A stretch of DNA of 62,830 nt from Acidobacteriota bacterium (lineage in GTDB: Bacteria > Acidobacteriota > Thermoanaerobaculia > Multivoradales > Multivoraceae): assembly GCA_026708285.1 (NCBI GenBank), contig JAPOVF010000260.1, forward strand, positions 1 through 62,830, given 5' to 3'. Made by a program: the position numbers and the translations under genes. Of the stretch, positions 37,743 to 54,257 are shown piece by piece; the stretch's first letter is position 1, and every line of letters begins with the position of its first letter. The notes under the pieces are model-generated. The model saw only the letters and a program-made list of their open reading frames with translations, did not search any database and was not told the DNA's origin.

Positions 37743-38165
37743 CTAGGGAATGACCCGGAGACCTTCCAGTTCCGCCGCAGCCGCAAGGCGTTCGTCGAGG
37801 CATACGAACGGAAGCGCACCGCCGAACTGGTCCTGGATGAGCAGGGCCGCCCCGAGCTGGCCGGAGTCGGCGGCCCGGAGCGAATGCCGCGCCAGCAGAA
37901 GCTCGGCCCGGGATCGCACCGCGAGCACGTCCGTTACTTCATCCCAACCGGCGGCCAGCGCATGGAAGAAGTCGAACAACTCTCGACGTTCCGGACGCGA
38001 CAACGTCACTTCACGACAGCGCCGCTCAAGCGCGCTGACGATCTCGGCGCGCGTCCACACCCAGGTGACGACACCATCGTCCTCGGCGAACCACTCGCGC
38101 ACGCGCTCGCTCTCCGGTTCGTCAAGGACCAGGGGAACCAGGGCGGACGCATCCCAGTACCTCAC
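37743..38165 (-). CDS. vapC: VapC-like PIN toxin
   Basis: YWDASALVPL...E, E(IVSA), LRAADSGQLGAA and FVCLDERL. Confidence 0.9.
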   Translation of the reverse strand: MRYWDASALVPLVLDEPESERVREWFAEDDGVVTWVWTRAEIVSALERRCREVTLSRPERRELFDFFHALAAGWDEVTDVLAVRSRAELLLARHSLRAADSGQLGAALLIQDQFGGALPFVCLDERLAAAAELEGLRVIP

Positions 38166-38177
38166 GCGACGCTCGGC

Positions 38178-38459
38178 TCAGAAGCGATCGGCCCGGTCCT
38201 CGGCCAGCGCTTCGGACAGATTCAGGTTCAGCGCAAGCGGCGGCTTCTCGAGAATCCGGGCCATGTCGCCCTTGCCCGGACGAATCACACCGGCGGCGAC
38301 GAGGCGCGCCCGCAGATCGTCGTCGTCCTTCACGTCCGGCGCCACCAGCTTGGCCACGGGCTTCCCGCGATCCAGCACCTGAACCTCTCCGCCCCGGCGA
38401 ACCTCGCGCAGGTAGTGAGAGAGACCTGCCTTCAACTCAGAAATCGAGACCGTCGTCAT
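38178..38459 (-). CDS. Phd/YefM (prevent-host-death) antitoxin
   Basis: MTTVSISELKAGLSHYLREVRRGGEVQVLDRGKPVAKLV is the Phd pattern, upstream of the PIN toxin. Confidence 0.9.
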   Translation of the reverse strand: MTTVSISELKAGLSHYLREVRRGGEVQVLDRGKPVAKLVAPDVKDDDDLRARLVAAGVIRPGKGDMARILEKPPLALNLNLSEALAEDRADRF

Positions 38460-38466
38460 GACGACC

Positions 38467-38500
38467 AATATAGTCTCTTGCCCGAGACCAGACAAGTCTC
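38467..38500 (-). promoter_or_regulatory. Sigma70-type promoter with overlapping inverted repeats for the Phd-VapC operon (leaderless)
   Basis: Minus strand TTGTCT-17 nt-TATATT-7 nt-ATG. GTCTC/GAGAC inverted repeats at 38473-38477, 38484-38488 and 38496-38500. Confidence 0.65.
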
Positions 38501-38587: not shown

Positions 38588-39181
38588 ATGGACCGAGAAG
38601 CGGCCTGGCAGACGGTACAGGAGTTCGTGAAGGCGCCGGGCCTGCGGAAACACATGCTGGCGGTCGAGGCGGCCATGCGCTGGTACGCCGAACAGCTCGG
38701 CGGCGACCCGGACTCCTGGGGCCTCGCCGGCCTGCTCCACGACTTCGACTGGGAGATCCACCCGACCCTCGAACAGCACCCGGCCGATGGCGCGGCGATC
38801 CTGCGCGAACGCGGGCTCGACGAGGACATCATCCGCACGATCCTCTCCCACAACACGGAAGGAACCGGAGTCGAACGGGAGACGAAGCGCGACTACGCGC
38901 TGCTGGCCTGCGACGAGATCACCGGGTTGATCAGTGCCGCCGCCCTCATCCGCCCGAGCAAGGACGTACGCGACGTGCCGCTCAAGTCGGTCCGCAAGCG
39001 CTGGAAGCAGAGAGCCTTCGCCGCCGGCGTCGACCGCGAGCACGTCGAGGAAGTCACCGCCGACTTCAGCCGCGAGTGCTTCGATGGCGATCTCGAACTC
39101 TGGCAGCACGCCGGCAACGTGCTGGCGGCGATGCAGGGCGTAGCGGCCGAGCTGGAGCTGGACGGCCGCCTGGCGAAGTGA
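38588..39181 (+). CDS. HD/HDIG-domain metal-dependent phosphohydrolase
   Basis: KHMLAVE, GLLHDFD, HP...G..IL, ILSH and ACDEITG. Confidence 0.88.
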   Translation: MDREAAWQTVQEFVKAPGLRKHMLAVEAAMRWYAEQLGGDPDSWGLAGLLHDFDWEIHPTLEQHPADGAAILRERGLDEDIIRTILSHNTEGTGVERETKRDYALLACDEITGLISAAALIRPSKDVRDVPLKSVRKRWKQRAFAAGVDREHVEEVTADFSRECFDGDLELWQHAGNVLAAMQGVAAELELDGRLAK

Positions 39182-40638
39182 TCTTCCTGGCTTGGTTAGC
39201 GTTGCTCGCGGGGGCCGCGGCGCCGCAACAACACACCGCGCGACCCAACGTTCTCTGGATTGACATCGACGACCAGTCGCCCTGGTACTCGAGCTACGGG
39301 AACGACCTCGTCGATACGCCCAACATCGATGCGCTGGCGCGACAGGGCGTGCTGTTCGAGCGGGCGTACGCGCCGGCGCCGGTGTGTAGTCCGACCCGTT
39401 CGTCGCTGATCACCGGCAGCTACGCCATTCGGATCGGGGCGCACGACCATCGCTCGGGGCGGGTTCCCGGCTACCGGATCCATCTGCCGGAAGGGGTCGT
39501 GACGGTACCCGAACTGTTCCGGGCCGCGGGCTACGAGACCTACAACGCCAGCAAGGACGACTTCAACTTCACCTACGACCGCGCGAAGCTCTACACGATC
39601 GGCGCCGAGCCGTCGGAAATCCCGTCCTGGAAGGGCCCGCAGGGCCGTGGACACTGGCGCGACGTGTCCGAAGGCAAGCCGTTCTTCGGGCAAACGAAGG
39701 TGGCCGGCGGCAAGGGCGTCGCGGACATCGCCGGGGAAGTGGAGGCGCTTGGTCGAAAGCCCGTGCGTCCGGCGGATGTGCCGGTGCCGGCGCAGTATCC
39801 CGACATTCCCCAGGTGCGCCAGCACATCGCCGACCACTACAACTCGATCCTGCGCACCGACCACCAGGTAGGCGAACTCGTGGCGCAACTGAAGGCCGAC
39901 GGACTCTGGGAAAGCACGGTCCTGGTGCTCTTCTCCGACCACGGTTCGGATCTGCCCCGGAGCAAGGAGTTCTCCTACGACGAAGGCCTGAGGATCCCGC
40001 TGATCGTCGTCGCTCCTGGACTACCGGAGGTCGTGAAGCCCGGCACGCGACGGGCCGATCTCGTCAACCTGATGGACCTCGCAGCCACGTCGCTGGCACT
40101 CGCCGGCCTCGACGTGCCGGAATTCATGGACGCGAAGGACATCTTCGATCCGGACTACCGCCGCAGCTACGTGTTCACCTCGGCCGACCGCATGTCGAAC
40201 GTCATCGACCGGGTTCGATCCGTGATGGGGCCGCGCTTCCACTACATCAGGAACTTCATGCTGGACCGGCCGCTCATCAACTGGGGCCATCGGGAGATGA
40301 TCGACCTCACGGGCGATCCGGATGACAGCAGCTTCCTGACGATCCGACGACTGGCCGGGAAAGGCAAGCTGACGCCCGCACAGGCCGCGCCCTACGGACA
40401 ACGCGTCGCCGAAGAGCTCTACGATCTCGAGAACGACCCGGACGAAGTCGTCAACCTGGCCGAAGATCCCGCATGCGCGGCAGTACTGAGCGAGATGCGC
40501 GAAGCGCTGGCGGGCTGGATCGAAGACACCGGCGACAAGGGCCAGTACCCCAGGTCGCAGGCGGCGATGGACGAGATCACGGGGCGCTTCGCCGAGGACT
40601 GGCTTCGAAGCCCCGAGTTCCGCGATCTACCGAAGTAG
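39178..40638 (+). CDS. Exported Cys-type (formylglycine) sulfatase
   Basis: GTG overlapping the HD gene stop, signal-like N-terminus, RPNVLWIDIDD, CSPTRSSLITG (CxPxR), FSDHG and ELYDL..DP.E. Confidence 0.92.
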   Translation: MIFLAWLALLAGAAAPQQHTARPNVLWIDIDDQSPWYSSYGNDLVDTPNIDALARQGVLFERAYAPAPVCSPTRSSLITGSYAIRIGAHDHRSGRVPGYRIHLPEGVVTVPELFRAAGYETYNASKDDFNFTYDRAKLYTIGAEPSEIPSWKGPQGRGHWRDVSEGKPFFGQTKVAGGKGVADIAGEVEALGRKPVRPADVPVPAQYPDIPQVRQHIADHYNSILRTDHQVGELVAQLKADGLWESTVLVLFSDHGSDLPRSKEFSYDEGLRIPLIVVAPGLPEVVKPGTRRADLVNLMDLAATSLALAGLDVPEFMDAKDIFDPDYRRSYVFTSADRMSNVIDRVRSVMGPRFHYIRNFMLDRPLINWGHREMIDLTGDPDDSSFLTIRRLAGKGKLTPAQAAPYGQRVAEELYDLENDPDEVVNLAEDPACAAVLSEMREALAGWIEDTGDKGQYPRSQAAMDEITGRFAEDWLRSPEFRDLPK

Positions 40639-40664: not shown

Positions 40665-41906
40665 CTACCCCTTGGCCGGATACCGGCTCTCCACGTAGTC
40701 TCCGACGATTCGGGTGAACTGCTCCGACAGTTCCGCCGCGGTCCCACGCAGCGTCGTGAACTGCCGGCCGTCGACGTAGACCGGGCAGGTCGGCGCCTCT
40801 CCGGTGCCCGGCAGCGAGATGCCGATGTCGGCAGCCTTCGACTCCCCCGGACCGTTGACGACGCAGCCCATGACGGCGAGTTTCAGTTCCTCGACGCCGT
40901 CGTAGCGGCGGCGCCACCCCGGCATGTTCGCCTCGATGAAGTCTTCCACCTGGAGCGCCAGCTCCTGGAAGGTCGTGCTCGTCGTGCGGCCGCAGCCGGG
41001 GCAGGCGGTGACGCTGGGCGCGAAGGCGCGCAGCCCCAGGGCCTGCAACAGTTCCCGGCAGGCGTGCACCTCCTCCCGGCGGTCGCCGCCGGGTCGCGGA
41101 GTCAGGGACGTTCGGATCGTGTCGCCGATGCCCTCCGCCAGCAGAACGGACATGGCCGACGACGACCAGACCAGCCCCTTGAGCCCCATACCGGCCTCGG
41201 TCAGACCGAGGTGAAGCGGCTGCCGCGTGCGGTTCGCCAGGTCCCGGTAGACCTCGATCAGGTCCGGCGGCGACGACATCTTGCAGGAGATGACGATCTG
41301 CTCCTCCGTCAGGCCGCAGTCGAGGGCCAGTTCCGTCGAACGGAGCGCCGACAGCACCATGCACTCGCCAACGATCTCCTCCGACGTCTTGCCGAGGTCG
41401 CGTTCCGTGTTCTCCTCCATTTTCGCCACCAGCAGATCCTGGTCGAGCGACCCGCCGTTGACGCCGATCCTCACCGGCTTGCCAAGCCTCCGGGCTACCT
41501 CGCAGATCGCCGCGAACTGGGGATCTCGCCGGCCGCCACGGCCGACGTTGCCGGGGTTGATCCGCAGCTTCGCCAAGGCCCGCGCGCAGGCCGGATGCCG
41601 CTCCAGAAGGACGTGGCCGTTGTAGTGAAAGTCGCCGACCAGCGGCACATCGCAGCCCTCCGCGTCGAGCCGGGCCCGAATCTCAGGCACGGCGACCGCC
41701 GCCGCGTCGACGTTGACCGTGATCCGCACGAGTTCCGAACCCGCCTCGGCCAGCGCCAGCGCCTGGGCGGTCGTCGCTTCGGCGTCCGCGGTGTCGGTGC
41801 TGGTCATTGACTGCACCACCACCGGCGCCCCGCCGCCGAGGACCACACCGCCTACTTCGACCGGGTGGGTCGTGCTGCGGTGGCTCTCCGGCGCGGCTGC
41901 CGCCAT
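40665..41906 (-). CDS. ispG: (E)-4-hydroxy-3-methylbut-2-enyl-diphosphate synthase
   Basis: [38 protein letters not shown], and Fe-S ligands CPGCGR and GCVVNGPGE. Confidence 0.97.
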
Positions 41907-42009: not shown

Positions 42010-45000
42010 ATGTCGGAGTCAAGCTCGGTTGTCCCCGGACCAGGCCGCGAGAAAGAACCCGGCAGGCCCGGAACTGAGACGCTCACGCCCGGCGCCCGCC
42101 GGCGTGAACTGCACAGGGGCTTGGGCGCCGGTGTACTGGCGATTGCCGGCCTGAGCAGCCTTGCCTTCGCCCAGCCGGTCTACGACGTCCTGAGGCGGGC
42201 GCCGGAGTTCTTCGCTATCCGCAACCTCTACATGGGCGATCTTCTGACCCTGGTCGTGGTGCTCGCAGTCGCGCCGACCCTGGCGCTCTCGGCACCGGCG
42301 GCAGCCCTTCGTTTTCTACGCCCGTCCTGGATGCGGCCCGCGATTGCGGTGCCCGCCGGCCTGCTAGGGGCGGTGATCGCGCTGCAGGCGATCCGCAACC
42401 TTCCCGCGGCCCTTGCCACGACCCTTGCACTGGCCGCCGGCGCCGCCGTGGGCTGGGCCTACATCCGATTCCGTGGCGTCCGCTCATTCGCCCTGCTGCT
42501 GTCCGCCGCCGCGATCCTGGTACCGGCACTCCTCGTGCTCGACGGTCGGGTTCGGAGAAGCGCGGCCAACCCCAACGAAGCGATCCCGGCCGATCTTGGC
42601 GACACCGGCGCCCGAGCGCCGGTCGTCCTGGTGGTTTTCGATGAGTGGTCACTGACCTCGATCCTTGACGCTGAGGGATCGATCGACCGCGAGCGGCTTC
42701 CCAACCTGGCGCGTCTGGCCGACCAGGCCACCTGGTATCCAAACGCGACGGCAGCCGCCGACGTGTCGGAACTGGCGGTGCCGGCGATGCTGACCGGTCG
42801 GACGACCGAGCAGGGCCGGCTTCCCACTCTGGCCGAGCAGCCGATCAACCTGTTCACGATCCTTGCACCCAGTCACGACATCTTCGCTATCGAGCCGATC
42901 ACTTCGCTCTGCCCGCCTGAGCTGAATCTCCTGGCCGAGCCACAGCCCGCCTTCAGGGAGCGCTTCGGACTCCTGATCTCCGATCTATGGGTCGTCTGGC
43001 TCAACCTGACGTTGCCCCCAGTCTGGACCGAACGATTGCCCGACGTGACCCAGACCTGGAGCGCCTTCGGACAGGACCTGGCCTCCGAACAGGAAGGGCC
43101 GCCCACCGACGAGCCCGTCAGGCGGGCCTTGCGTCACCTTCGGGAGGTCGACCGCGCGGCCGAGTTCCGCCGCCTAGGCGACTCGATCCGGAGGCAAGGC
43201 CAGCGTCCAGGTTTCTACTTCATGCACACACTTCTGCCTCACCTGCCCTGGGAGTATCTGCCCTCCGGCCGCACCTATCGCGTCACCCGGACCCGCGTCC
43301 ACGGACTCGAGCGGGAACTGTGGACGACTGATCCCTGGCCAGTGCGCCACCACCAGAAGCGTTATCTGCTGCAAGTGGAGTTCGTCGATCACCTGATCGG
43401 CGAGCTGATCGAGAAGCTCGAGTCCGCCGGTCTCTTCGACCAGAGCGTGTTCGTCATCACGGCGGATCACGGCGTAGCCTTCCAGCCCGGCAGATCGCGG
43501 CGCCTGCTCGAGGTCGACGACGCTTCCGGCTATCAGCCTCTTGATCTCGCTGCGGTTCCCCTCATCATCAAGGCGCCCCTTCAGCGTCAGGCAGAGATTG
43601 ACAGCACCGTTACTTCTCTGGTCAGCCTGACGCCGCGAATCCTCGAACTCGCGGGAGCCGAAACGACTCCGATTCCTCCGTTGGAGGACACCGGAACACC
43701 CTCCCTGGTCGGCAAGTATGCCGCTGACGTGGCGGTGCCTATCGACCGCGAGCCCTGGCGGCGGGAACGGCTCGCGGAGCAGGCAGCTCTGCTCGGCGAA
43801 GCGAACGACCCAACGGCCATCGGGGCCGTACCCAGTCTTCACGGCCGGAGGATCTCGGAGCTGCCGCGTCAGAACGGGGAGATCAGCATCGAGATGGAAC
43901 TCCCAGCTCTCTGGGATCACGTCGATCCCGACCGGGCTTCACTGCCGGCGCTCGCACAGGGGACTCTCAAGGGGCCCGAGTCCCTCCTCGAACGCTCTGT
44001 CGCGGTGGCCCTGAACGGTGTCGTCGCAACCTCCGTTCGTCCCCACCAGACGAGCAGCGGTGATATCCGTATCGCGGCCCTCCTGCCGGAACACCTTTTC
44101 CGCGCGGGGCTGAATCACGTGGACGTGTTCCTGATCTCAGAACGGGGTACCGCCTTGGAGCTCGAGCATGTGGAACGCCCGCTGGGCTTCGTCTACGAAC
44201 TGTCCTGGGGCGAACCTGGCGAAGGAGACACACTGCTGCGTGGGTCACGAAGCGCCCTCGCCACGAATGTGGAACGAATCCCCGTGGTCCGAAACGACCC
44301 CAGCATGATCGGCTACCTTGAGGGCAGCCACCGGGAAACCGCCAACATCCACGGTTGGGCGGCCGACCTCACCGAGCCCGGAAGCATCCAGGAAGTGATC
44401 GCCTTTCTCGCCGGACGCCAGTACTGGATCGGTTCGCCTCAGTACGAAAGGCCCAGCGTCGCGAATCGCTATGGCCTGGAACACGTCTTCTCCGGCTTCA
44501 CCCAGAAGTCCCGTCCCGGTGCCGGGCTCGACTCCGAGGCTACTGCCGAAGTCATCGCCGCGATCCGCCGCGAGGGCATCGTCGCCTACGCGATCTCCCG
44601 CCGGGGCATCGCTACTCGACTGCGGTTTTTCTACGCGCCACTCGAGTTCGACCAGGACGGAATCGAGACCATGCCGATCAGCGACGGTCGCCGACTTCCT
44701 GTCCGTCAAACCGGAAGCGGCGTTGAAGGCACGATCGACCTGATCAGCAAACCCGGGAAACGCACGCTGATCGAGGGCTGGGCTGCCGACGTCGAACGCG
44801 GTGAACGCCCCCGTCAGATCGTCATCTATCGCGACGGAAGATTCCTGCGGAACCTGGGCGCGAACCGCGCGCGGCCGGACGTCGTCAGGCACCACGATGA
44901 CCCCCGGCTGCTGCGCACCGGCTTCCGCGGCACCGTACCGGGCGCTCCCGAACCAGAGACGTTCGCTGAGCGTCACCGGGTCTTCGCTCTGACACTCAGT

Positions 45001-45051
45001 GGCTTCGCGGTCGAGTTGCCGCTGCGTGCGCCGCCGGAAACGGCTGACTAG
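42010..45051 (+). CDS. Membrane-anchored alkaline-phosphatase-superfamily (LTA-synthase/sulfatase-like) transferase with C-terminal repeated module
   Basis: About five N-terminal TM helices, VVFDEW, ADVSELAVPAMLTG, HTLLPHLPW and TADHG. C-terminal GWxxD...RPDV...GF repeats. Confidence 0.78.
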   Translation: MSESSSVVPGPGREKEPGRPGTETLTPGARRRELHRGLGAGVLAIAGLSSLAFAQPVYDVLRRAPEFFAIRNLYMGDLLTLVVVLAVAPTLALSAPAAALRFLRPSWMRPAIAVPAGLLGAVIALQAIRNLPAALATTLALAAGAAVGWAYIRFRGVRSFALLLSAAAILVPALLVLDGRVRRSAANPNEAIPADLGDTGARAPVVLVVFDEWSLTSILDAEGSIDRERLPNLARLADQATWYPNATAAADVSELAVPAMLTGRTTEQGRLPTLAEQPINLFTILAPSHDIFAIEPITSLCPPELNLLAEPQPAFRERFGLLISDLWVVWLNLTLPPVWTERLPDVTQTWSAFGQDLASEQEGPPTDEPVRRALRHLREVDRAAEFRRLGDSIRRQGQRPGFYFMHTLLPHLPWEYLPSGRTYRVTRTRVHGLERELWTTDPWPVRHHQKRYLLQVEFVDHLIGELIEKLESAGLFDQSVFVITADHGVAFQPGRSRRLLEVDDASGYQPLDLAAVPLIIKAPLQRQAEIDSTVTSLVSLTPRILELAGAETTPIPPLEDTGTPSLVGKYAADVAVPIDREPWRRERLAEQAALLGEANDPTAIGAVPSLHGRRISELPRQNGEISIEMELPALWDHVDPDRASLPALAQGTLKGPESLLERSVAVALNGVVATSVRPHQTSSGDIRIAALLPEHLFRAGLNHVDVFLISERGTALELEHVERPLGFVYELSWGEPGEGDTLLRGSRSALATNVERIPVVRNDPSMIGYLEGSHRETANIHGWAADLTEPGSIQEVIAFLAGRQYWIGSPQYERPSVANRYGLEHVFSGFTQKSRPGAGLDSEATAEVIAAIRREGIVAYAISRRGIATRLRFFYAPLEFDQDGIETMPISDGRRLPVRQTGSGVEGTIDLISKPGKRTLIEGWAADVERGERPRQIVIYRDGRFLRNLGANRARPDVVRHHDDPRLLRTGFRGTVPGAPEPETFAERHRVFALTLSGFAVELPLRAPPETAD

Positions 45052-45062
45052 CGGTCACCGTC

Positions 45063-47531
45063 ATGACCGAGGCTGCGCCGGAGCGTGATGCGGGCGACTC
45101 CCGGTCCCCGGAACTGTCGGCTCCACGGCCACGCCTGAGCGCGCTGGCCGCGTGGGGCGCGTTCGGGGTCTTCGCGATCTGGTTCGCAGCCCGCCTGATC
45201 CCCAGCCTCGCTCTGCGGCTACGCTTCGAGGACCAGTTGATCGTGCTCCGCTACGCCCGCAACTTGGCGGAGGGCGATGGCCTCGTCTACAACGCCGGCG
45301 AGCGAGTGATGGGCTTCACGACCCCGCTGTTCACGGTGCTGAGCAGCGTGTTCGTGGTCCTCGGCGGAGACGAGGCGGCGGCATGGCAGAACGGGTTCGG
45401 CCTGCTCTGCATGCTGGGCACCGCCGCACTCGCCGCCAGACTACTGGTCCGCCTCGGTGCCGGGACAGCCACGCCCCTGGCGGTGGCCCTGGTCACCTTC
45501 AATCCGGCTGTCGCCTACAACTATCTCTACGTGGGGATGGAAATCCACCTCTTCGCCCTGCTCTTCCTGCTGGCCCTGGAGCTGCACCTGAGCGAACGCA
45601 CCACCGCCGCCGCGGTCACGTCGGCGCTGCTGTTTCTGACCCGACCGGAGGGCGCCCTTCTTGCCGGCATGCTGATCGCTCACCCGTGGCTCCGGCGGCG
45701 CCAGGCGTCTTGGGCTCCGGCGCTGGCGGCGCTGGCCACGGCAGTGCCGTGGCTCCTTTTCGCCGCCCTGTACTACGGCGACATCCTGCCGAAGACGCTG
45801 GGAGCGAAAGAAGGCGAGAGCATCGTCTCTCCCTGGCGCTACCTGGACCTGGTGCGAGAGGTGTACGCCGAGGCGGCCGGCAGTTTGCTGGCAGCATGGA
45901 GTCCCTGGTTGGCGGAGACGATTGCCGGGCCGCTGCTTCTGGTCGCCCTTCTGGTCGCCGGAGCCACGGCGCTCCTGCGCCGCGAGGCGGCGCTGTGGCC
46001 CTTGATCGCCTTCCCGCTCTGCTCGCTCCTCGGCTATGCCGCGATCGGCTCGCTGCCGGGCTACACGTGGCACTACTACACGCTGAACGTGCTCAGCGCG
46101 TTCCTCCTCGCCCTCGGCGTTCACGCCTGCCTGGTCGCTACGGGCCGACTCTGCCGGCGGGCCGCTGAGCTGGTGTCCGCAGCCGCGCGCATCGCCCCCC
46201 GGCGCCGCCCGCTCCTCGCGGTCCTGCTAGCCGCGATCCCGATCCTCGCCCTCACGGCGCCGGTGCTGCGGGACACCTCGCGGCAGATCGGACATCGAAT
46301 CGAGCCGACCGCCCGGGAGCAACGGTTGGAAGACATCGGCCGATGGCTCGCCGAGCACTACGAGCCGAGCACGTCCGTTCTCGTTCGCGAGATCGGCCAC
46401 GTCGGCTGGGTCAGCGGGCTGCGCATCGTCGACCGGGGCGGTCTGGTCACGCCAGGCCTTCGCTACGACGTGCCGCGCCGCGTCGCCACCATGAAGTTCC
46501 TGCCGGACCTGCTGCTGCTGCGAGCGGACAACTACGGAGTCCGGGATCCCCGCGAAGGCGCCGGCTTCCCTGCGAACCTGGGCTACGAACGGGTCGAGGG
46601 GTTCGACCACGGACAGGAGTGGAGCCTCCACTCGCTGATCGCACCCGGCGCCTCCTCCGGGCGCGAAGAGGATCGAACCCGCTACGAGGTCGCCCGAAGC
46701 GCCGCCGGCCACCTCGAGGCCGTGCTCCGCTACCGCGTCGTCGACGGCGAATCCGAACCGCCGACCCGAATACCCATCAACCCGCCCGCCACCGGCTTCG
46801 ACGGCGCGCTCGATGCGGTGCTGCCACGATCCGGCCACGGGCCAGTCGACGCCGTGGCCGACATCGTGGTCAGCGGTTTCATCCGCGACGAACCGCCGGA
46901 TCCCCGCGGCGTCGAGGCGGTCCTCCTGTTCACCGGCGGCGAGATGACGGTTCACCAGCCCGGCGTTCACCCTCGCCCCGATCTCGCCGCCCTCTACGGA
47001 CCGCCTTTCGGGAACGGTGGCTTCGCGTTCCGGACCCCGGCCGATCGGAATCTCGTCGAGCGCGAAGGCGTCCTCGCCTACGCGGTGTCGCGGCGCGGAG
47101 TGGCCAGCCGCCTCCGCTTTGCCTATCTGCCTCTCGAGTGGGAGCCCCGCAACCGCGAGATCCTGCCGACGACCGACGGGCGTCGCCTGGCCGTGCGTCC
47201 GCCAGGCGACGGCTACCACGGGGAGTCGCGCCTCCTCGCGTCAGGAAACCGCGTCGAGATCGAAGGCTGGGCGTTGGACGCCGCACGAGGCCAGCGGCCG
47301 CGCCAGATCGTCATCTACCGGGACAACCACTTTCTGACCAACCTGGGGCTCAACCAGGAACGACCCGACATCGCCGAGCGCTTCGGGAATCCGGCTCTGC
47401 TGCGGGCCGGTTTCGGCGGCGCCGTTCCGGGAGAAGCCGACGCCGCTTCCCCTAGCGAGCGTTACCGCGTGTTCGCCATCATGCTGCGCGGCGCCGCCGT
47501 GGAACTCAATCCGCCGCGGACAGCGCCTTGA
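45063..47531 (+). CDS. GT-C-fold membrane glycosyltransferase-like protein with the same C-terminal module
   Basis: EDQLIVLRYARNLAEGDGLVYNAGERVMGFTTPL (DDxxIxxRYAxN family), GME, TRPEG, YYGD.LP.T..AK and many TM segments. Confidence 0.78.
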   Translation: MTEAAPERDAGDSRSPELSAPRPRLSALAAWGAFGVFAIWFAARLIPSLALRLRFEDQLIVLRYARNLAEGDGLVYNAGERVMGFTTPLFTVLSSVFVVLGGDEAAAWQNGFGLLCMLGTAALAARLLVRLGAGTATPLAVALVTFNPAVAYNYLYVGMEIHLFALLFLLALELHLSERTTAAAVTSALLFLTRPEGALLAGMLIAHPWLRRRQASWAPALAALATAVPWLLFAALYYGDILPKTLGAKEGESIVSPWRYLDLVREVYAEAAGSLLAAWSPWLAETIAGPLLLVALLVAGATALLRREAALWPLIAFPLCSLLGYAAIGSLPGYTWHYYTLNVLSAFLLALGVHACLVATGRLCRRAAELVSAAARIAPRRRPLLAVLLAAIPILALTAPVLRDTSRQIGHRIEPTAREQRLEDIGRWLAEHYEPSTSVLVREIGHVGWVSGLRIVDRGGLVTPGLRYDVPRRVATMKFLPDLLLLRADNYGVRDPREGAGFPANLGYERVEGFDHGQEWSLHSLIAPGASSGREEDRTRYEVARSAAGHLEAVLRYRVVDGESEPPTRIPINPPATGFDGALDAVLPRSGHGPVDAVADIVVSGFIRDEPPDPRGVEAVLLFTGGEMTVHQPGVHPRPDLAALYGPPFGNGGFAFRTPADRNLVEREGVLAYAVSRRGVASRLRFAYLPLEWEPRNREILPTTDGRRLAVRPPGDGYHGESRLLASGNRVEIEGWALDAARGQRPRQIVIYRDNHFLTNLGLNQERPDIAERFGNPALLRAGFGGAVPGEADAASPSERYRVFAIMLRGAAVELNPPRTAP

Positions 47532-48376
47532 CCAACCGGTACAGGAACTCCTGCCCTTCGTGAAAGTGGTCGATCCGGATCCGCTCGTCGCGGCCGTGGG
47601 CGCGGACGTCGTCCATGTCGCCGAAGATGCCGGAGACGCCGTAGACCGGGATACCGGCGTTGCGCAGGTACAGGCCGTCCGTGGCGCCAGTGGTCATGAC
47701 AGGCAGCACGGGAACGCCCGGCCACATCTCCTCGGTCACCCGCTCGATCGCGTCGAGAACGTCGCCGGTCATCGGCGACGGCGGGCTCGGCGTCGCCTCC
47801 CGCCTCCGTTCGACCTCGACGCCGAACGGGGAGGCGAGCCGGTGCAACGTCTCCTCGACCTCGTCCGGGTCGTGGCCAGGCAACAGCCGGCAGTTCACGT
47901 TCGCCTCCGCCAACTGCGGCAGCGCGTTCTCGGCGTGCCCGCCCTCGATCAGGGTAGCGACGCAGGTTGTCCGTAGCCGCGCGTGGTAGGAGGCCTGCGG
48001 CGACAGCACGGCCAGGGCCTCGGGGTCGCGCGGGTCGGCCACGATCCGCCGCATGGCCTCGCCGGTTTCGCCGCCGACCAGGTCCGCCGAACGCTCGAAG
48101 AACTCCTCGGTGACCTCGTTCAGCATGACCGGAAAGTCGAAGTCGCGCACGGCCAGGAGCGCCGCCGACAGATCGGCGATCGCGTTCTCGCGCACCGGCA
48201 GCGAGGAGTGGCCGCCCGGGTTCCTGGCCCTGAACCAGAAGGACAGGAAGACCTTCTCGCTTCCTTTACTCGGCCGGCGGCAGGTTCCGCGGGTTCGCCG
48301 CCTGGGCAACGGCCACGGAAGCAACCGCCCCGAGCCCCAGGGCAGCGGCAGCGAGAATCGTTTCCAGGCGTTTCAT
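47506..48376 (-). pseudogene. M20/M25/M40 peptidase pseudogene with large internal deletion and frameshift
   Basis: RBS plus ATG at 48376 gives MKRLETILAAAALGLGAVASVAVAQAANPRNLPPAE* (stop 48266-48268). A different frame then resumes as SEKVFLSF...PGGHSS...GGHAENALP...GATDG...AHGRDE, which is only the C-terminal half of an M20 peptidase. Confidence 0.8.
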
Positions 48377-48392: not shown

Positions 48393-49622
48393 CTAGGAGC
48401 TTGCGAGGACGGACGGAGCGGCGCCGGCGACCAGCAGTTCGGCGAGCTGGCTCCGGCCCAGCCAGTAGCTCAGATCGCGCGGATGGGCGATGTCCCAGAT
48501 GGCGATGTCGGCACGCTTCCCCGCCTCCAGCGTGCCCCGATCCGCGAGTCCCATCGCCCGCGCGGCGTGACGGGTGACACCGGCCAGGCATTCCTCCGGC
48601 GTCAGACCGAAGAGACGGCTGGCCAGAGCCATCGTTTCCGGCAAAGAGCACAGCGACGACGTGCCCGGATTGCAGTCCGTGGCGATCGCGATCGGCACCC
48701 CGCGCCGGCGCAACTCGCCGACCGGCGGGCGGCACCTCTCGTCGAGCGTCAGACAGGCGCCGGGTAGCAGCACGGCAACCGTGCCGGCCCTGGCCAGCGC
48801 CTCCACGCCGTGCGGCGGCGTGTACTCGAGATGGTCCGCCGACAGCGCGCGGAAACGAGCGGCCACCTCGGCGCCGCCGCCATCGCTCAACTGATCCGCA
48901 TGCAGTCTGACGGGCAGGCCGAGATCGACGGCCCGCTCGAAGACCCTGGCGACCTGGGCGGCGTCGAACGCGATCCCCTCGCAGAAGGCGTCCACGGCAT
49001 CGGCGAGGTTCCGTTCCACCGCCGCGGGCATTACCTCCGAGAGGACCAGATCGATGTACTCGTCCGCACGGCCCCTGAACTCGGCCGGCACCGCGTGCGC
49101 CGCGAGCAGCGTGGTCCGGATCGTCAGGCCGGAGTGCCGGCCGAGGCGCCGGGCCACCTCCAGCATCCGGAGTTCCGTGTCCGAATCGAGGCCATAGCCG
49201 GACTTGATCTCGACCGTAGCCGCGCCTTCGGCGGCAAGGGCTCGAAGTCGATGGAGCGCGGCGCCGTAGAGCTCGTCATCGGTCGCCGCCCGGGTCGCGC
49301 GGACCGTCGACATGATGCCGCCGCCCGCATCGGCGATGTCCTCGTAGCTCGCTCCGCCGAGGCGCGCCTCGAACTCCGCCCCCCGGTCTCCTCCGAAGAC
49401 CAGGTGGGTGTGGCAATCGATGAGCGCGGGAGTGATCCATCGGCCCTCCAGGGAGCGTTGCTCGGCGGCCTCGCCGGGCGGCAGCCGGGAACGCGGACCG
49501 ACCCAGGCGATCGTCCCCCCGGCGATCGCCAGAGCGCCGTCCTCCACCGCCCCGTACGCGACGACACCGTGATGCATCGTCGCGATGCGCGCGTCGGTCA
49601 GCAGCAGGTCCCAACGGTCCAT
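48393..49622 (-). CDS. hutI: Imidazolonepropionase
   Basis: LIDCHTHLVFGG.R..EF..RL.GASY..I..AGGGI, EIKSGYGL, DAFCE, HADQLS, ADHLE and DCNPG. Confidence 0.96.
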   Translation of the reverse strand: MDRWDLLLTDARIATMHHGVVAYGAVEDGALAIAGGTIAWVGPRSRLPPGEAAEQRSLEGRWITPALIDCHTHLVFGGDRGAEFEARLGGASYEDIADAGGGIMSTVRATRAATDDELYGAALHRLRALAAEGAATVEIKSGYGLDSDTELRMLEVARRLGRHSGLTIRTTLLAAHAVPAEFRGRADEYIDLVLSEVMPAAVERNLADAVDAFCEGIAFDAAQVARVFERAVDLGLPVRLHADQLSDGGGAEVAARFRALSADHLEYTPPHGVEALARAGTVAVLLPGACLTLDERCRPPVGELRRRGVPIAIATDCNPGTSSLCSLPETMALASRLFGLTPEECLAGVTRHAARAMGLADRGTLEAGKRADIAIWDIAHPRDLSYWLGRSQLAELLVAGAAPSVLASS

Positions 49623-49687
49623 CCGTCCGATCCTGCCCTGTTGTCCACACGATTGCCAGACGACGCCGCCAGGCAGTAGCGTGGACC

Positions 49688-51049
49688 ATGGTGACGAGGA
49701 TCAGGGCACGCCTCGCGCTCCTGGCGCGGGGATGGGCGGAAGACGTCCTCCTGGTCATCGACGGAGGCACGATCGCCCGGGCGGAGCCAGGCGCCGCCCG
49801 CTGCCCCGCCGACCTGGACGCCGGCATCGTCACTCCCGGCCTCACCAATGCCCACAGCCACGCCTTCCAGCGGGCGCTGGCCGGCAGGACCGAACACCGC
49901 TCGGGAGCCGGCCGCGACAGCTTCTGGACCTGGCGCCGGAGCATGTACCGACTCGTCCAGCGGCTCGATGCCGGCCGGTTCGAGGCGATCGCGCGGCAGG
50001 CGTACGTGGAGATGCTGGAGAGCGGGTTCACTTCGGTCGTCGAGTTCCACTACCTGCACCGGGAGCCGGCGGGATCCGGGAACGCGGAGACGATGTTCGA
50101 GGCGATCCACCGCGCCGCTTCAGCAACCGGCATCCGGTTGACCTACGTCCCCGTGCTCTACCAGCGCGCGGGATTCGACGACGACGCCGTCGGACCCGGC
50201 CAACGCCCCTTTGCCCTGACGACCGCTCGTTTTCTGGACCACCAGGAACGCACCGCCGAGACCGTGTCCGGGCCGATCCGGGTCGGCATCGGCGTCCACA
50301 GCCTGCGCGCGGTCGGCGAACGGTCGCTGCGCCGGGTCGCGGCGCGAGCCGGAGAAACCGGCGCGCCGATGCACATCCACATCGCCGAACAGCAACGGGA
50401 GGTCGACGAGTGCCTGGCCGCCCGCGGACAGCGCCCGGTCCGCTGGCTCCTCGACCGGTTCGAGATCGGTGAGACGTGGTGCCTGGTGCATGCCACCCAC
50501 ATGGATGCCGACGAGTGCCGCGATCTCGCCGCTTCCGGCGCCACCGTCTGCCTGTGTCCGACGACCGAGGCGAACCTGGGCGACGGCCTGTTTCCGCTGC
50601 CCGACTATCTGCGGCACCGCGGCCGCATCGCGATCGGCTCCGACAGCCACGTCTCGATCAATCCCTTCGAGGAACTGCGCTGGCTCGAGTACGCGCAGCG
50701 GCTTCGCTCGCAGTCGCGGAACGTGGTGTCCATGCAGGACCCGCATGTCGGGCGTGAGCTGTTCGAGCGCGCCCTTGCCGGCGGCGCCCGGGCAGCCGGC
50801 CACGGGATTGCCGGCCTCGAGGTGGGAGCGCCGGCCGATCTGGTCGTCCTCGATGCCGGGAATCCGATGCTTGCCGGCCACGAGCCGGCCACTCTGCTCG
50901 ATGCACTGGTATTCTCGGGCTACCGCCTCCCCATCGAACGGGTGATGGTCGATGGCAAGTGGCGGGTAGCAGGCGGCGAGCACGCCGATCGCAGCGAAGC
51001 GGCAAGAGACTTCGCAAGAGCACTGGCAAACCTGGAAGCAGGCCCGTAA
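49688..51049 (+). CDS. hutF: Formimidoylglutamate deiminase
   Basis: [54 protein letters not shown] and GSDSH. Confidence 0.94.
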
Positions 51050-51063
51050 CCGCGGAGCCCGAT

Positions 51064-52740
51064 ATGAAGACCACCCGGATCGAACCGATCAGGGCGCCCA
51101 CCGGGAGCAGCATCTCGGCGAAGAGCTGGCTCACCGAGGCGCCGCTCCGCATGCTGATGAACAACCTCGACCCGGAGGTCGCGGAGCGCCCAGAGGACCT
51201 CGTCGTCTACGGCGGGATCGGCAAGGCGGCCCGCAACTGGGAGTCCTACGAGCGGCTCACCGAAACGCTCCGTGAACTGGAAGCCGACGAAACGCTCGTC
51301 GTCCAGTCCGGGAAGCCGGTCGGCGTGTTCAGGACCCACGCCGACGCTCCTCGCGTTCTCATCGCCAACTCGAACCTCGTCCCCGCCTGGGCGACCTGGG
51401 AGCACTTCCGGGAGCTCGACCGGCTGGGCCTGATGATGTTCGGGCAGATGACCGCCGGATCGTGGATCTACATCGGCAGCCAGGGGATCATCCAGGGCAC
51501 CTACGAGACGTTCGTCGAGATGGGCCGGCAGCACTACGGCGGCGATCTGTCCGGGCGCTGGATTCTGACCGCCGGACTCGGCGGCATGGGCGGAGCGCAG
51601 CCCCTCGCCGCCAAGCTGGCCGGGGCCTCGCTGCTGGCGATCGAGTGCCAGGCGGACCGGATCGAGAAGCGGCTCGAGACCGGCTACGTCGACATGCGGG
51701 CCGAGTCCCTCGACGAGGCTCTGACCGTGATCCAGGCGTCGGTCGAAGCGCGGTCGCCGCTCTCTGTCGGCCTGCTCGGCAACGCCGCTGAGGTGCTTCC
51801 CGAACTGCTGGCCCGCGGCGTGCGGCCCGACGCGCTGACCGACCAGACCTCGGCGCACGACCCGGCGAACGGCTATCTGCCGGTCGGCTGGAGCGTCGAC
51901 GAGTGGCGTGCGCGCAGGGAGAGCGATCCCGACGCGGTGGCGACGGCGGCGCGCGAGTCGATCGCGGTCCACGTTCGCGCGATGCTCGGCTTCAGCGAGG
52001 CCGGCGTGCCCACCTTCGACTACGGCAACAACATCCGCCAGGAGGCGCTCGGCGCGGGAGTCGAGAACGCCTTCGACTTTCCCGGCTTCGTGCCGGCATA
52101 CATCCGCCCCCTGTTCTGCCGGGGCATCGGTCCCTTCCGCTGGGCCGCCCTGTCCGGCGATCCCGAGGACATCTACCGCACCGACGCGAAGGTCAAGGAG
52201 CTGATTCCCGACGACCCGCACCTGCACAACTGGCTGGACGCCGCGCGCGAGCAGATCCGGTTCCAGGGCCTGCCGGCGCGGATCTGCTGGGTGGGCCTGG
52301 GACAGCGTCACCGGATCGGCCTCGCCTTCAACGAGATGGTGCGAACCGGCGAGTTGCGCGCTCCCGTCGTCATCGGCCGCGATCACCTGGACAGCGGCTC
52401 CGTCGCGAGTCCGAACCGGGAGACCGAGGCGATGCGGGACGGTTCCGACGCAGTCTCCGACTGGGCCTTCCTCAACGCGATGCTGAATACCGCCAGCGGC
52501 GCCACCTGGGTCTCCGTGCATCACGGCGGCGGAGTCGGCATGGGGTACGCCCAGCATGCCGGGTTCGTCATCGTCTGCGACGGCAGCGAGGCCGCCGACC
52601 GGCGGATCGAGCGTGTGCTGTGGAACGACCCGGCGACCGGCGTCATGCGCCACGCCGACGCCGGCTACGAGGAAGCGATCGAATGCGCCAGCGAGCAGGG
52701 CCTCAACCTGCCGATGGTCCCGGGCGCCGGGCAGCGATGA
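51064..52740 (+). CDS. hutU: Urocanate hydratase
   Basis: [46 protein letters not shown] and [18 protein letters not shown]. Confidence 0.98.
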
Positions 52741-54257
52741 ACCTCCGGCTCAACGGTTCGCCGCTAACGCTTAGCGAACTGCGGGAAGCCTGGCGCCTTC
52801 CGCTCAGCGTCGAGCTCGGCGAGGACGCCAGGAGCCGAATCGAAGCGGCCGCGGCAGCCGTCGACCGCGTGATCGCCGAAGGCGCCGCGGTCTACGGCGT
52901 CAACACCGGCTTCGGGCAGCTCGCCCAGGTGCGGATCGAAGAGGACGAACTCGCCCACCTCCAGGAGAACCTGGTGCGCTCCCACGCCGCCGGCGTCGGC
53001 GACGATCTGAGCGACGAGATCGTGCGCCTGGTGATCCTGCTGAAGGTGATGGCCCTTGCCCGCGGCCATTCCGGCGTGCGACTGGAGCTGGTCGACGCGC
53101 TGAGAGCACTCCTGGAGCACGAGATCTACCCGTGCATTCCGTCGCAGGGCTCGGTCGGCGCCTCGGGAGACCTCGCGCCGCTCGCCCATCTGTCGCGGGT
53201 GCTGCTCGGGGAGGGCGAGGCCCACGTCCGCGGCAGGCTGGTCCCCGCGCTTGAAGCCCTGACCGAGGCGGGTATCGAACCGATCCGGCTGGGCCCGAAG
53301 GAGGGCCTTGCGCTGCTGAACGGCACCCAGGTGTCGACGGCGCTGGCGCTGGCCGCGGTCTTCCGAACCGAGAACGTCCTGGCCGCCGCCCTGGTGGCCG
53401 GTGCGATGGCCACCGACGCGACCAAGGGGAGCGACGGCCCGTTCGACCGACGAATCCAGGATCTCCGGGGGCATTCCGGTCAGGCCGACGTCGCTACCGC
53501 GCTGCGGGAGCTGATGAGGGGAAGCGAAATCCGGGCATCGCACCTCCGGTGCAACCGGGTGCAGGATCCCTACTCGATCCGCTGCCAGCCCCCGGTAGCC
53601 GGTGCCTGTCTGGAAGCTCTCCGCCACGTCTCCGGCCTTCTCGAGACGGAAGCGAACGCCGTCACCGACAATCCGCTCGTCTTCGCCAGCACCGGGGAGA
53701 TCCTCTCCGGCGGCAACTTCCATGCGGAACCGGTCGCGATCGCCGCCGACTACCTGGCGCTCGCGGTCGCCGAGATCGGCTCGCTGTCCGAACGCCGCAC
53801 GGCGCTCCTCATCGACGCCAATCTCAGCCAGTTGCCGGCCTTCCTGGTCCGCAACAGCGGCCTGAACAGCGGCTTCATGATGGCAGGCACCACCGCCGCG
53901 GCCCTCGTGTCCGAGAACAAGTGCCTCGCCCATCCCGCGACTGTGGACACGATCCCGACCTCCGCCAACCAGGAGGACCACGTCAGCATGGCGACCCACG
54001 GGGCACGACGGCTGCACGACATGCTGGACAACGCGCAGAACATCGTCGCGATCGAACTGCTCGCGGCGGCTCAGGGAATCGAGTTCCGCCGTCCGGACCG
54101 GAGTTCCACCGCGATCGAGGAAGCGATCGCGACGGTGCGTGCGATCTCGCCGCCCTACACCGAGGACCGGCCGCTCGCCAACGACATCGCAGGTGTTGCC
54201 GCGCTGATCGGGCGAGGCGCCTTCCGCGGCTACGTGGCGTCCTTGCTTGCGCGCTAA
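52737..54257 (+). CDS. hutH: Histidine ammonia-lyase
   Basis: YGVNTGFG, specificity [11 protein letters not shown] motif [20 protein letters not shown] and [10 protein letters not shown]. Confidence 0.96.

Follow-up and report, generated by a model that had tools for sequence, protein, structure and literature searches.

Two adjacent genes, at positions 42,010 to 47,531 of a stretch of 62,830 nucleotides from a presumably marine Acidobacteriota bacterium of the class Thermoanaerobaculia (assembly GCA_026708285.1, contig JAPOVF010000260.1; the whole stretch is called the window below), encode membrane enzymes of two unrelated classes that end in the same tandem of immunoglobulin (Ig)-like domains. 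The first, gene 1, encodes an enzyme of the LtaS/EptA/PbgA type, and the second, gene 2, is judged from its sequence to encode a GT-C glycosyltransferase resembling AftB. What is new is the architecture: a single Ig tandem placed on two unrelated envelope-enzyme classes, in a multi-gene array of variable content from an acidobacterial lineage that is uncultured. It is the arrangement of known parts that is new, rather than the system itself.

A tandem Ig module shared by two unrelated enzymes

When the two proteins are compared with BLASTP, there is one significant alignment, between residues 789–1012 of the gene 1 product (P1) and residues 613–821 of the gene 2 product (P2), with 44% identity and E=3e-47; the rest of both proteins remains unaligned. 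Homologous C-terminal regions had been proposed in an initial annotation made from the DNA sequence without database searches, which placed them at about 44310–45030 and 46790–47510. These extents agree with the boundaries given by our profile of the module (residues 773–1011 of P1, positions 44326–45042; residues 577–818 of P2, positions 46791–47516), the peptides quoted as examples are all present, and the window contains exactly two copies. The same annotation had described each region as two repeats, probably Ig-like beta-sandwiches, and this description holds. The halves of the module are weakly alike in pairs (E=1e-3 to 2e-4), single repeats of other proteins match either half independently, and an AlphaFold2 (AF2) model built from an alignment of 27 modules (alignment A1; pLDDT 89.9, pTM 0.83) consists of two beta-sandwiches, in both of which the RPDV...GF segment is surrounded by short helices.

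We call the two halves repeat A (RA) and repeat B (RB). Between the two genes, RA is 34% identical (E=4e-14) and RB 54% identical (E=7e-42). RB is modelled with a pLDDT of about 95 and holds most of the invariant columns of A1, and RB together with the RA–RB junction is highly conserved. The positions of A1 that are invariant across the enzyme classes are D147-G148-R149, at the junction, and W179, D182, R190, Y195, R196 and R245.

At the level of DNA, identity between the two copies is only ~67%, in patches, so the duplication of the module is old. A neighbour-joining tree of the tandem modules, midpoint-rooted and without support values, groups all GT-C modules in one clade beside the acidobacterial LtaS-like modules, with the LtaS-like modules of other lineages outside. 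This topology suggests that the LtaS-like family probably had the module ancestrally and that a GT-C enzyme within the Thermoanaerobaculia lineage received it in a single copying event, the GT-C gene then being duplicated; transfer in this direction, from LtaS-like to GT-C, is the simplest reading. Since the modules group by enzyme class and not by genome, there is no ongoing homogenisation, and this grouping, together with the ~67% nucleotide patches, led us to reject gene conversion between the copies or their recent duplication at the DNA level.

The catalytic parts belong to two different classes

Gene 1 encodes an LtaS/EptA/PbgA-type enzyme, that is, a membrane anchor followed by a domain of the alkaline-phosphatase (AP) superfamily with a predicted Ser nucleophile. 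The Pfam Sulfatase family (PF00884) matches residues ~200–550 with E=5e-20, and its homologues, 242 of which were collected, bear the NCBI name ‘sulfatase-like hydrolase/transferase’. An AF2 model of residues 1–745 (pLDDT 84.9) shows a helical anchor (residues 27–184), an alpha/beta catalytic domain and an extra beta-sandwich at residues ~620–745, termed R0, which is kept in most gene-1-like relatives. Compared with known structures by Foldseek, the model matches S1 sulfatases and phosphonate monoester hydrolases at E~1e-11, and also full-length PbgA (6xlp) over 657 columns.

The catalytic residues of gene 1 were examined in an alignment of 52 homologues that are 26–92% identical to it (A5). 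Position 253 is Ser or Thr in all 52, and D211, E212, H406, H411, D486 and H487 are invariant. We take these conserved residues to be the equivalents of the LtaS/EptA ligands, on the basis of motif position and of the EptA/MCR-1 motif T-x-x-S-V-P-C-M. From S253 to the conserved G263 there are 10 residues, the same spacing as between Cys and Gly in the true sulfatase encoded nearby (positions 39076–40638; CSPTRSSLITG). The formylglycine motif C/S-x-P-x-R, which belongs to the S1 formylglycine sulfatases, is not present in gene 1; S253-E-L-A-V-P stands there instead, and the Pro and Arg required for formylglycine formation are missing. We place gene 1 in the Ser/Thr-nucleophile branch of the superfamily, which includes LtaS, EptA/MCR-1, OpgB and PbgA.

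With LtaS, EptA/MCR-1, OpgB and PbgA/YejM, gene 1 has in common an N-terminal helical anchor that precedes an extracytoplasmic sulfatase-fold domain, and a Ser/Thr in place of formylglycine, accompanied by acidic and His residues that are invariant in the gene 1 family. Unlike them, it has three C-terminal beta-sandwiches added, and its nearest structures are the soluble S1 sulfatases and phosphonate monoester hydrolases. Orthology of gene 1 to a characterised member failed by the equivalog cut-offs of NCBIfam: its matches to choline sulfatase, arylsulfatase, LtaS, PehA and YejM all score far under the cut-offs (29 bits against 970 for LtaS, 18.5 against 825 for YejM and 41.8 against 433 for choline sulfatase).

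Gene 2 is, as far as sequence comparison tells, an AftB-like GT-C (GT-CA) enzyme. It has no Pfam match of its own, and a few members of its family (117 homologues) match one of the GT-C families PMT_2, Glyco_transf_22 or STT3. The profile built from 48 of its members (A2) finds AftB (9dlf), a terminal beta-(1->2)-arabinofuranosyltransferase of solved structure, with E=4e-27 over 325 profile positions, in the transmembrane core. E56-D57 of P2 are aligned with D61-D62 of AftB (the DD motif), and R194 with R221. In AftB, D62, located at the tip of JM1, is catalytic and R221 stabilises the departing phosphate (PMC12041299). Both are kept in the gene 2 family: in A2, R194 never varies and D57 has a conservation of 90% or more.

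AftB is without the Ig tandem, unlike gene 2, and gene 2 is not its orthologue, since it scores 28.5 bits on the NCBIfam AftB model (NF041481), for which the cut-off is 1050, with the match confined to 50 N-terminal residues. In the periplasmic domain that follows the core of gene 2, D457, G460, P481 and D482 are conserved; GT-C paralogues without the module are 500–541 residues long.

That the two genes have different catalytic folds, as first proposed from the translations, is therefore borne out by the Pfam Sulfatase and AftB profile matches, and the extracytoplasmic (periplasmic) location then suggested for the module agrees with homology to LtaS/EptA/PbgA and to AftB.

The two genes are co-oriented and separated by a gap of 11 bp (Table 1). 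The first open reading frame (ORF) can be extended upstream to 41713, an extension that overlaps ispG, and orthologues of gene 1 begin at the position equivalent to 42010. The window matches a 246-kb ENA contig identically over the gene.

Table 1. Positions in the window of the two genes, their parts and their neighbours (aa, residues of the encoded protein)
Feature	Positions	Strand	Remarks
Gene 1	42010-45051	+	1013-aa ORF; membrane-anchored AP-superfamily (sulfatase-fold) enzyme with three C-terminal beta-sandwich domains
Gene 1 membrane anchor	42088-42561	+	helices within aa 27-184: H27-63, H75-103, H105-127, H133-153, H155-184 (AF2 model); hydropathy peaks
Gene 1 catalytic domain	42565-43809	+	aa 186-600
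Gene 1 catalytic site D211/E212	42640-42645		
Gene 1 putative nucleophile S253	42766-42768		
Gene 1 catalytic sites H406, H411			
Gene 1 catalytic site D486/H487	43465-43470		
Gene 1 extra beta-sandwich R0	43810-44244	+	aa 601-745; model strands E620-744; missing from gene 2
Gene 1 RA	44245-44649	+	aa 746-880; GWAAD...RPSV...SGF; alignment A1, model strands E21-125
Gene 1 RB	44650-45048	+	aa 881-1013; DGRRL, GWAAD, RPRQIVIYRDG, RPDV, LLRTGF, RHRVFA
Gene 2	45063-47531	+	822-aa ORF; AftB-like GT-C glycosyltransferase (by sequence) with the same C-terminal module as gene 1
Gene 2 transmembrane GT-C core	45063-46292	+	aa 1-410; about 10 hydropathy peaks
Gene 2 D57	45231-45233	+	alignment to 9dlf
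Gene 2 R194	45642-45644	+	alignment to 9dlf
Gene 2 periplasmic domain of GT-C	46293-46787	+	aa 411-575; module-less paralogues stop after this domain
Gene 2 RA	46788-47162	+	aa 576-700; SGFIRD...RPDL...GGF
Gene 2 RB	47163-47528	+	aa 701-822
PIN-domain toxin and PhdYeFM antitoxin pair	37743-38495	-	
HD-domain protein, then formylglycine-type sulfatase	38588-40638	+	sulfatase with CSPTR motif and SGSH_C
ispG	40665-41906	-	
M20/M28 peptidase, C-terminal part	47506-48324	-	
Histidine-utilisation genes, then DUF3604 genes	48393-54257 and downstream		

The module is a divergent branch of a known Ig domain

Direct annotation of the module returns nothing useful in Pfam at E<=10 or among PDB sequences. 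We searched the module profile exhaustively with HMMER against 1.84 billion cluster representatives (clusters at 50% identity), where it matches 3339 proteins at E<=1e-3, 799 at E<=1e-10 and 73 at E<=1e-30; many proteins of the family have 2–15 matched stretches. In remote members these stretches coincide with matches of Pfam Big_7. Single remote repeats found by the A1 profile with independent E-values of 1e-10 to 1e-13 carry GWAAD...VYIDG...ARPDVA, and the same repeats individually score 25–30 bits on Big_7 against a gathering cut-off of 24.1. The repeats of the window and their closer relatives have no Big_7 match (at E<=10 for the window repeats). The module thus forms a divergent subfamily, as yet unannotated, within the Big_7 type of bacterial Ig domain, which is well known, and is not a new fold. 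Big_7 (PF17957), an auxiliary domain of chitinases and adhesins, is linked to it through intermediate sequences and shares the GWAxD...RPDV motifs and the Ig-like beta-sandwich, whereas the helical insertions of the window repeats are longer (RPDV...LLRTGF) and their junction, DGRRL, is conserved.

A census of partner domains covered the 143 top-ranking representatives that were not already in the collection, a sample biased towards close relatives. A gene-1-like anchor with AP domain is present in 51 of these 143 clusters, with 1–5 repeat matches (a tandem may count as one), and Pfam Sulfatase in 40 of the 92 cluster representatives scanned. AftB-like GT-C partners are limited to clusters of the lineage itself (P0043, P0069, P0081, P0087) and to P0140, whose host genome probably belongs to the same lineage. 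Other partners include a PMT_2 GT-C protein (P0212), a GT2/GT4 protein (P0266), a methyltransferase (P0202) and a beta-helix protein (P0138), and further ones are NHL, SBBP and Kelch propellers, a pro-kumamolisin peptidase and cargo of the type IX secretion system. Accordingly, the domain is generic, while LtaS-like enzymes are where its closest subfamily is concentrated; a well-known Ig domain scattered over unrelated proteins with no enrichment on envelope enzymes, the outcome against which the initial annotation had set its proposal, is found in its first half and not in its second.

A variable array in one lineage

Species-representative contigs were scanned with one very specific peptide pattern, the reach of which is the close lineage. 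The genomes in which close relatives of the module were found are labelled as Acidobacteriota (Thermoanaerobaculia, Ca. Multivorans and ‘Holophagales’ metagenome-assembled genomes), with one exception, and many of them presumably come from marine hosts, as we read from the isolate names. The exception is a contig of 4.8 kb binned as Chloroflexota (L035, JAJDZD010000070.1), on which a GT-C gene with the module is followed by a module-less GT-C gene; misbinning is a more probable cause than transfer.

The gene order ABC2/Rce1, PIN-Phd, HD, sulfatase, ispG, gene 1, gene 2 is conserved in related genomes, and orthologues are 52–92% identical across the lineage. Profile scans of 48 related loci revealed co-oriented arrays of 1–4 LtaS-like and 0–4 GT-C genes, nearly all with the terminal module. 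Seven loci (L005, L007, L008, L012, L017, L024 and L025) resemble the window in having gene 1 followed by gene 2. Larger arrays include three LtaS-like genes and one GT-C gene, all with the module (L014), four LtaS-like and two GT-C genes (L016/L038), and one LtaS-like gene with four GT-C genes, of which two lack the module (L006); L010 and L031 are also listed among the related loci with a variable tandem array. Second loci carry solitary LtaS-like paralogues with the module. In L037 (1214–6666), a paralogue of this kind, 991 residues long, is found in a further envelope context, with the gene for a class A penicillin-binding protein (Transgly and Transpeptidase domains) as its direct upstream neighbour.

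Some loci contain interrupted genes. The gene 1 orthologue of L001/L002 (5781–8759) is broken into ORFs of 134, 574 and 283 residues, and in L001 a module ORF comes directly after the split orthologue. A frameshift splits the module in L036 (3661–6803), and short ORFs that appear to encode a standalone module are present in L003 (8001–8747) and L040 (5824–6633). We considered whether standalone modules (P0004–P0006 and that of L040) might be independent secreted factors. This is doubtful, given that inspection found no signal peptide in any of them, that L001 has the split orthologue, and that the module of P0006 groups with those of GT-C paralogues. Standalone modules and split ORFs are probably gene fragments, pseudogenes or assembly frameshifts.

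Proposed function and alternatives

We tentatively favour a reading in which an ancestral Ig tandem, copied between neighbours, has been kept as an acceptor-binding or positioning arm on two periplasm-facing envelope enzymes, and we put its chances slightly short of even. Both enzymes would lie in the inner membrane with their catalytic domains and modules on the periplasmic side, as the topologies of LtaS/EptA/PbgA and AftB suggest. Gene 1 would probably transfer a phospho-substituent from a membrane lipid, and gene 2 probably a sugar from a polyprenyl-phosphate, both donors being putative, and the two would decorate an extracytoplasmic glycoconjugate as their presumed acceptor. RA–RB would serve as an accessory arm without catalytic function, binding or positioning a polymeric acceptor, in the manner of AftD's beta-sandwich carbohydrate-binding modules (CBMs), and would thereby hold both enzyme classes on the same glycan, with both copies of the module kept since under purifying selection.

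By analogy with known enzymes, binding of a shared acceptor polymer would be the most likely role of RA–RB. In AftD, a GT-C enzyme, arabinan is bound by three beta-sandwich CBMs (10.1101/2019.12.22.885152). Together with EmbA/B/C it represents the mycobacterial GT-C arabinofuranosyltransferases, which, like gene 2, have non-catalytic beta-sandwich domains on the periplasmic side. The module here differs from theirs in being a Big_7-type Ig tandem of no recognised CBM family, in being found also on a class that is not a glycosyltransferase, and in its diderm acidobacterial host. Partnerships between the two enzyme classes are a second source of analogy. Lipoteichoic acid (LTA), for instance, is made by LtaS. 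It is glycosylated by YfhO, a GT-C enzyme (PMC5836110), and a similar picture emerges for ArnT and EptA, which both decorate lipid A in the periplasm (PMC2904496). In each pair, one GT-C and one LtaS/EptA-type enzyme work at the outer face of the cytoplasmic membrane on a common glycolipid or polymer. Unlike the gene pair described here, neither of these pairs has, to our knowledge, a shared accessory module.

Several observations weigh against an acceptor-binding arm. Foldseek comparison of the module model with the PDB gives generic tandem-Ig structures only (Fab/scFv and LAG3 D3-4, with E of at least 1e-4 and TM-scores of 0.2–0.3), comparison with a viral library gives phage tail and FN3-type proteins only, no recognised CBM family is among the 50 best PDB structure matches, and the module has no Pfam CBM match. 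No genes for donor synthesis adjoin the gene pair. Module-less GT-C paralogues occur within the same arrays as those with the module, and a GT-C gene is absent from the fetched flank in about 13 of ~31 primary loci, so that the pairing is frequent and not obligatory. The repeat family is also found on many proteins where it is perhaps a mere spacer; in P0266 (1133 residues) the tandem lies inside a multi-domain GT2/GT4 glycosyltransferase that is probably cytoplasmic, so the family is not confined to extracytoplasmic proteins. Finally, the history of copying between neighbours draws on the tree described above, with its midpoint root and lack of support values.

The same observations bear on a passive role, in which the module would be an Ig-like stalk or spacer, or a domain for folding or stability, shared through easy duplication between neighbours with no functional link. 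A generic repeat that forms arrays of 2–15 copies on unrelated secreted proteins, that varies in number among LtaS-like relatives (1–5 matches), that is missing from some GT-C paralogues of the same arrays and that has no CBM-like structural match is what one would expect of a spacer. Spacers usually drift faster than the rest of a protein, however, and RB is as conserved as the catalytic cores. Among paralogues of the GT-C family, identity is 52–61% in RB and 47–58% in the transmembrane core, and among those of the LtaS-like family it is 54–70% in RB and 56–67% in the AP domain, with lower values in RA and the other periplasmic parts (30–50% in RA and the GT-C periplasmic domain). A long LtaS-like paralogue of the P0131 type (~1164 residues) has 33% identity with gene 1 over the AP domain compared with 61% over RB. 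This conservation, the P0131 contrast, and the charged and aromatic residues that are invariant across enzyme classes argue that RB does something specific, and we consider a purely passive module rather unlikely.

A specific function could also lie in contacts between proteins, with the module mediating homo- or hetero-oligomers of the LtaS-like and GT-C enzymes or docking on a periplasmic or outer-membrane partner. Ig-like domains often mediate such contacts, the same RB is present on all array paralogues, and the high conservation of RB and of the RA–RB junction would suit an interface. The modules nevertheless cluster by enzyme class and not by genome, giving no sign of co-adaptation within a genome, and we regard this explanation as improbable. 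The initial annotation had proposed a targeting or docking tag that brings both enzymes to the same polymer, S-layer or scaffold, a function that we regard as putative; its interpretation is plausible in broad lines and too strongly put. The presence of the module on whole arrays of both enzyme classes fits a common target, but a new, dedicated tag does not agree with the 3339 clusters of the family and with remote members that pass the Big_7 cut-off.

Recent acquisition of gene 1, or of the pair, as an island is highly improbable. It had been hinted at on account of the lower GC content of gene 1, which is real and small (0.663 against a window mean of 0.679, with a standard deviation (sd) of 0.014 in 3-kb windows, a difference of about 1.1 sd). 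GC at third codon positions, at 0.777 against 0.859 +/- 0.052 for 34 putative genes, is about 1.6 sd below the mean, with five other genes equally low or lower, and gene 1 is no outlier. The synteny and the 52–92% identity of orthologues extend through the lineage, no mobility genes flank the pair, and horizontal acquisition of gene 1 is unsupported.

If RA–RB does bind an acceptor polymer, as we favour, two mechanistically unrelated enzyme classes on the periplasmic face would have been given the same recognition arm by transfer of a domain between neighbouring genes. One small soluble module would then offer a handle for finding the surface glycan of an uncultured group of Acidobacteriota, and a very large unannotated Big_7-like subfamily (GWAxD...RPDV) would be defined. 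The widespread architecture of ‘sulfatase-like hydrolase/transferase’ with Ig repeats has no characterised member to date. A bolder extension, to which we give little credence, is that the variable LtaS-like and GT-C arrays of marine Thermoanaerobaculia (relatives of Ca. Multivorans) are steered to one polymer by a lectin-like RA–RB, and that gain, loss and fission of cassettes alter the decoration, resulting in a cassette-like, lineage-specific diversification of surface glycans. If the module is only a spacer, the arrangement would be a case of ordinary domain shuffling.

Neighbouring genes

Upstream of the pair, the toxin–antitoxin genes of the PIN and PhdYeFM families keep the same position in related contigs (L001 and L005). 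The genes for the HD-domain protein and the soluble formylglycine-type sulfatase lie immediately upstream of both ispG and the gene pair; this sulfatase represents a different branch of the superfamily of gene 1. Downstream, on the opposite strand, the M20/M28 peptidase gene shares 26 nucleotides with the 3′ end of gene 2. Only its C-terminal part is present (about 230–270 residues, with M20_dimer and Peptidase_M20), and it looks like a truncated remnant; longer versions are found at related loci, with an ORF of 942 residues in L040 (6608–9436) and one of 733 residues, containing Ns, in L003. The histidine-utilisation genes that follow include hutI-like, hutF-like, urocanase and aromatic-amino-acid lyase genes. 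In the TARA contig L001 a DUF3604 gene comes directly after the module gene, which indicates that the region has been rearranged between relatives.

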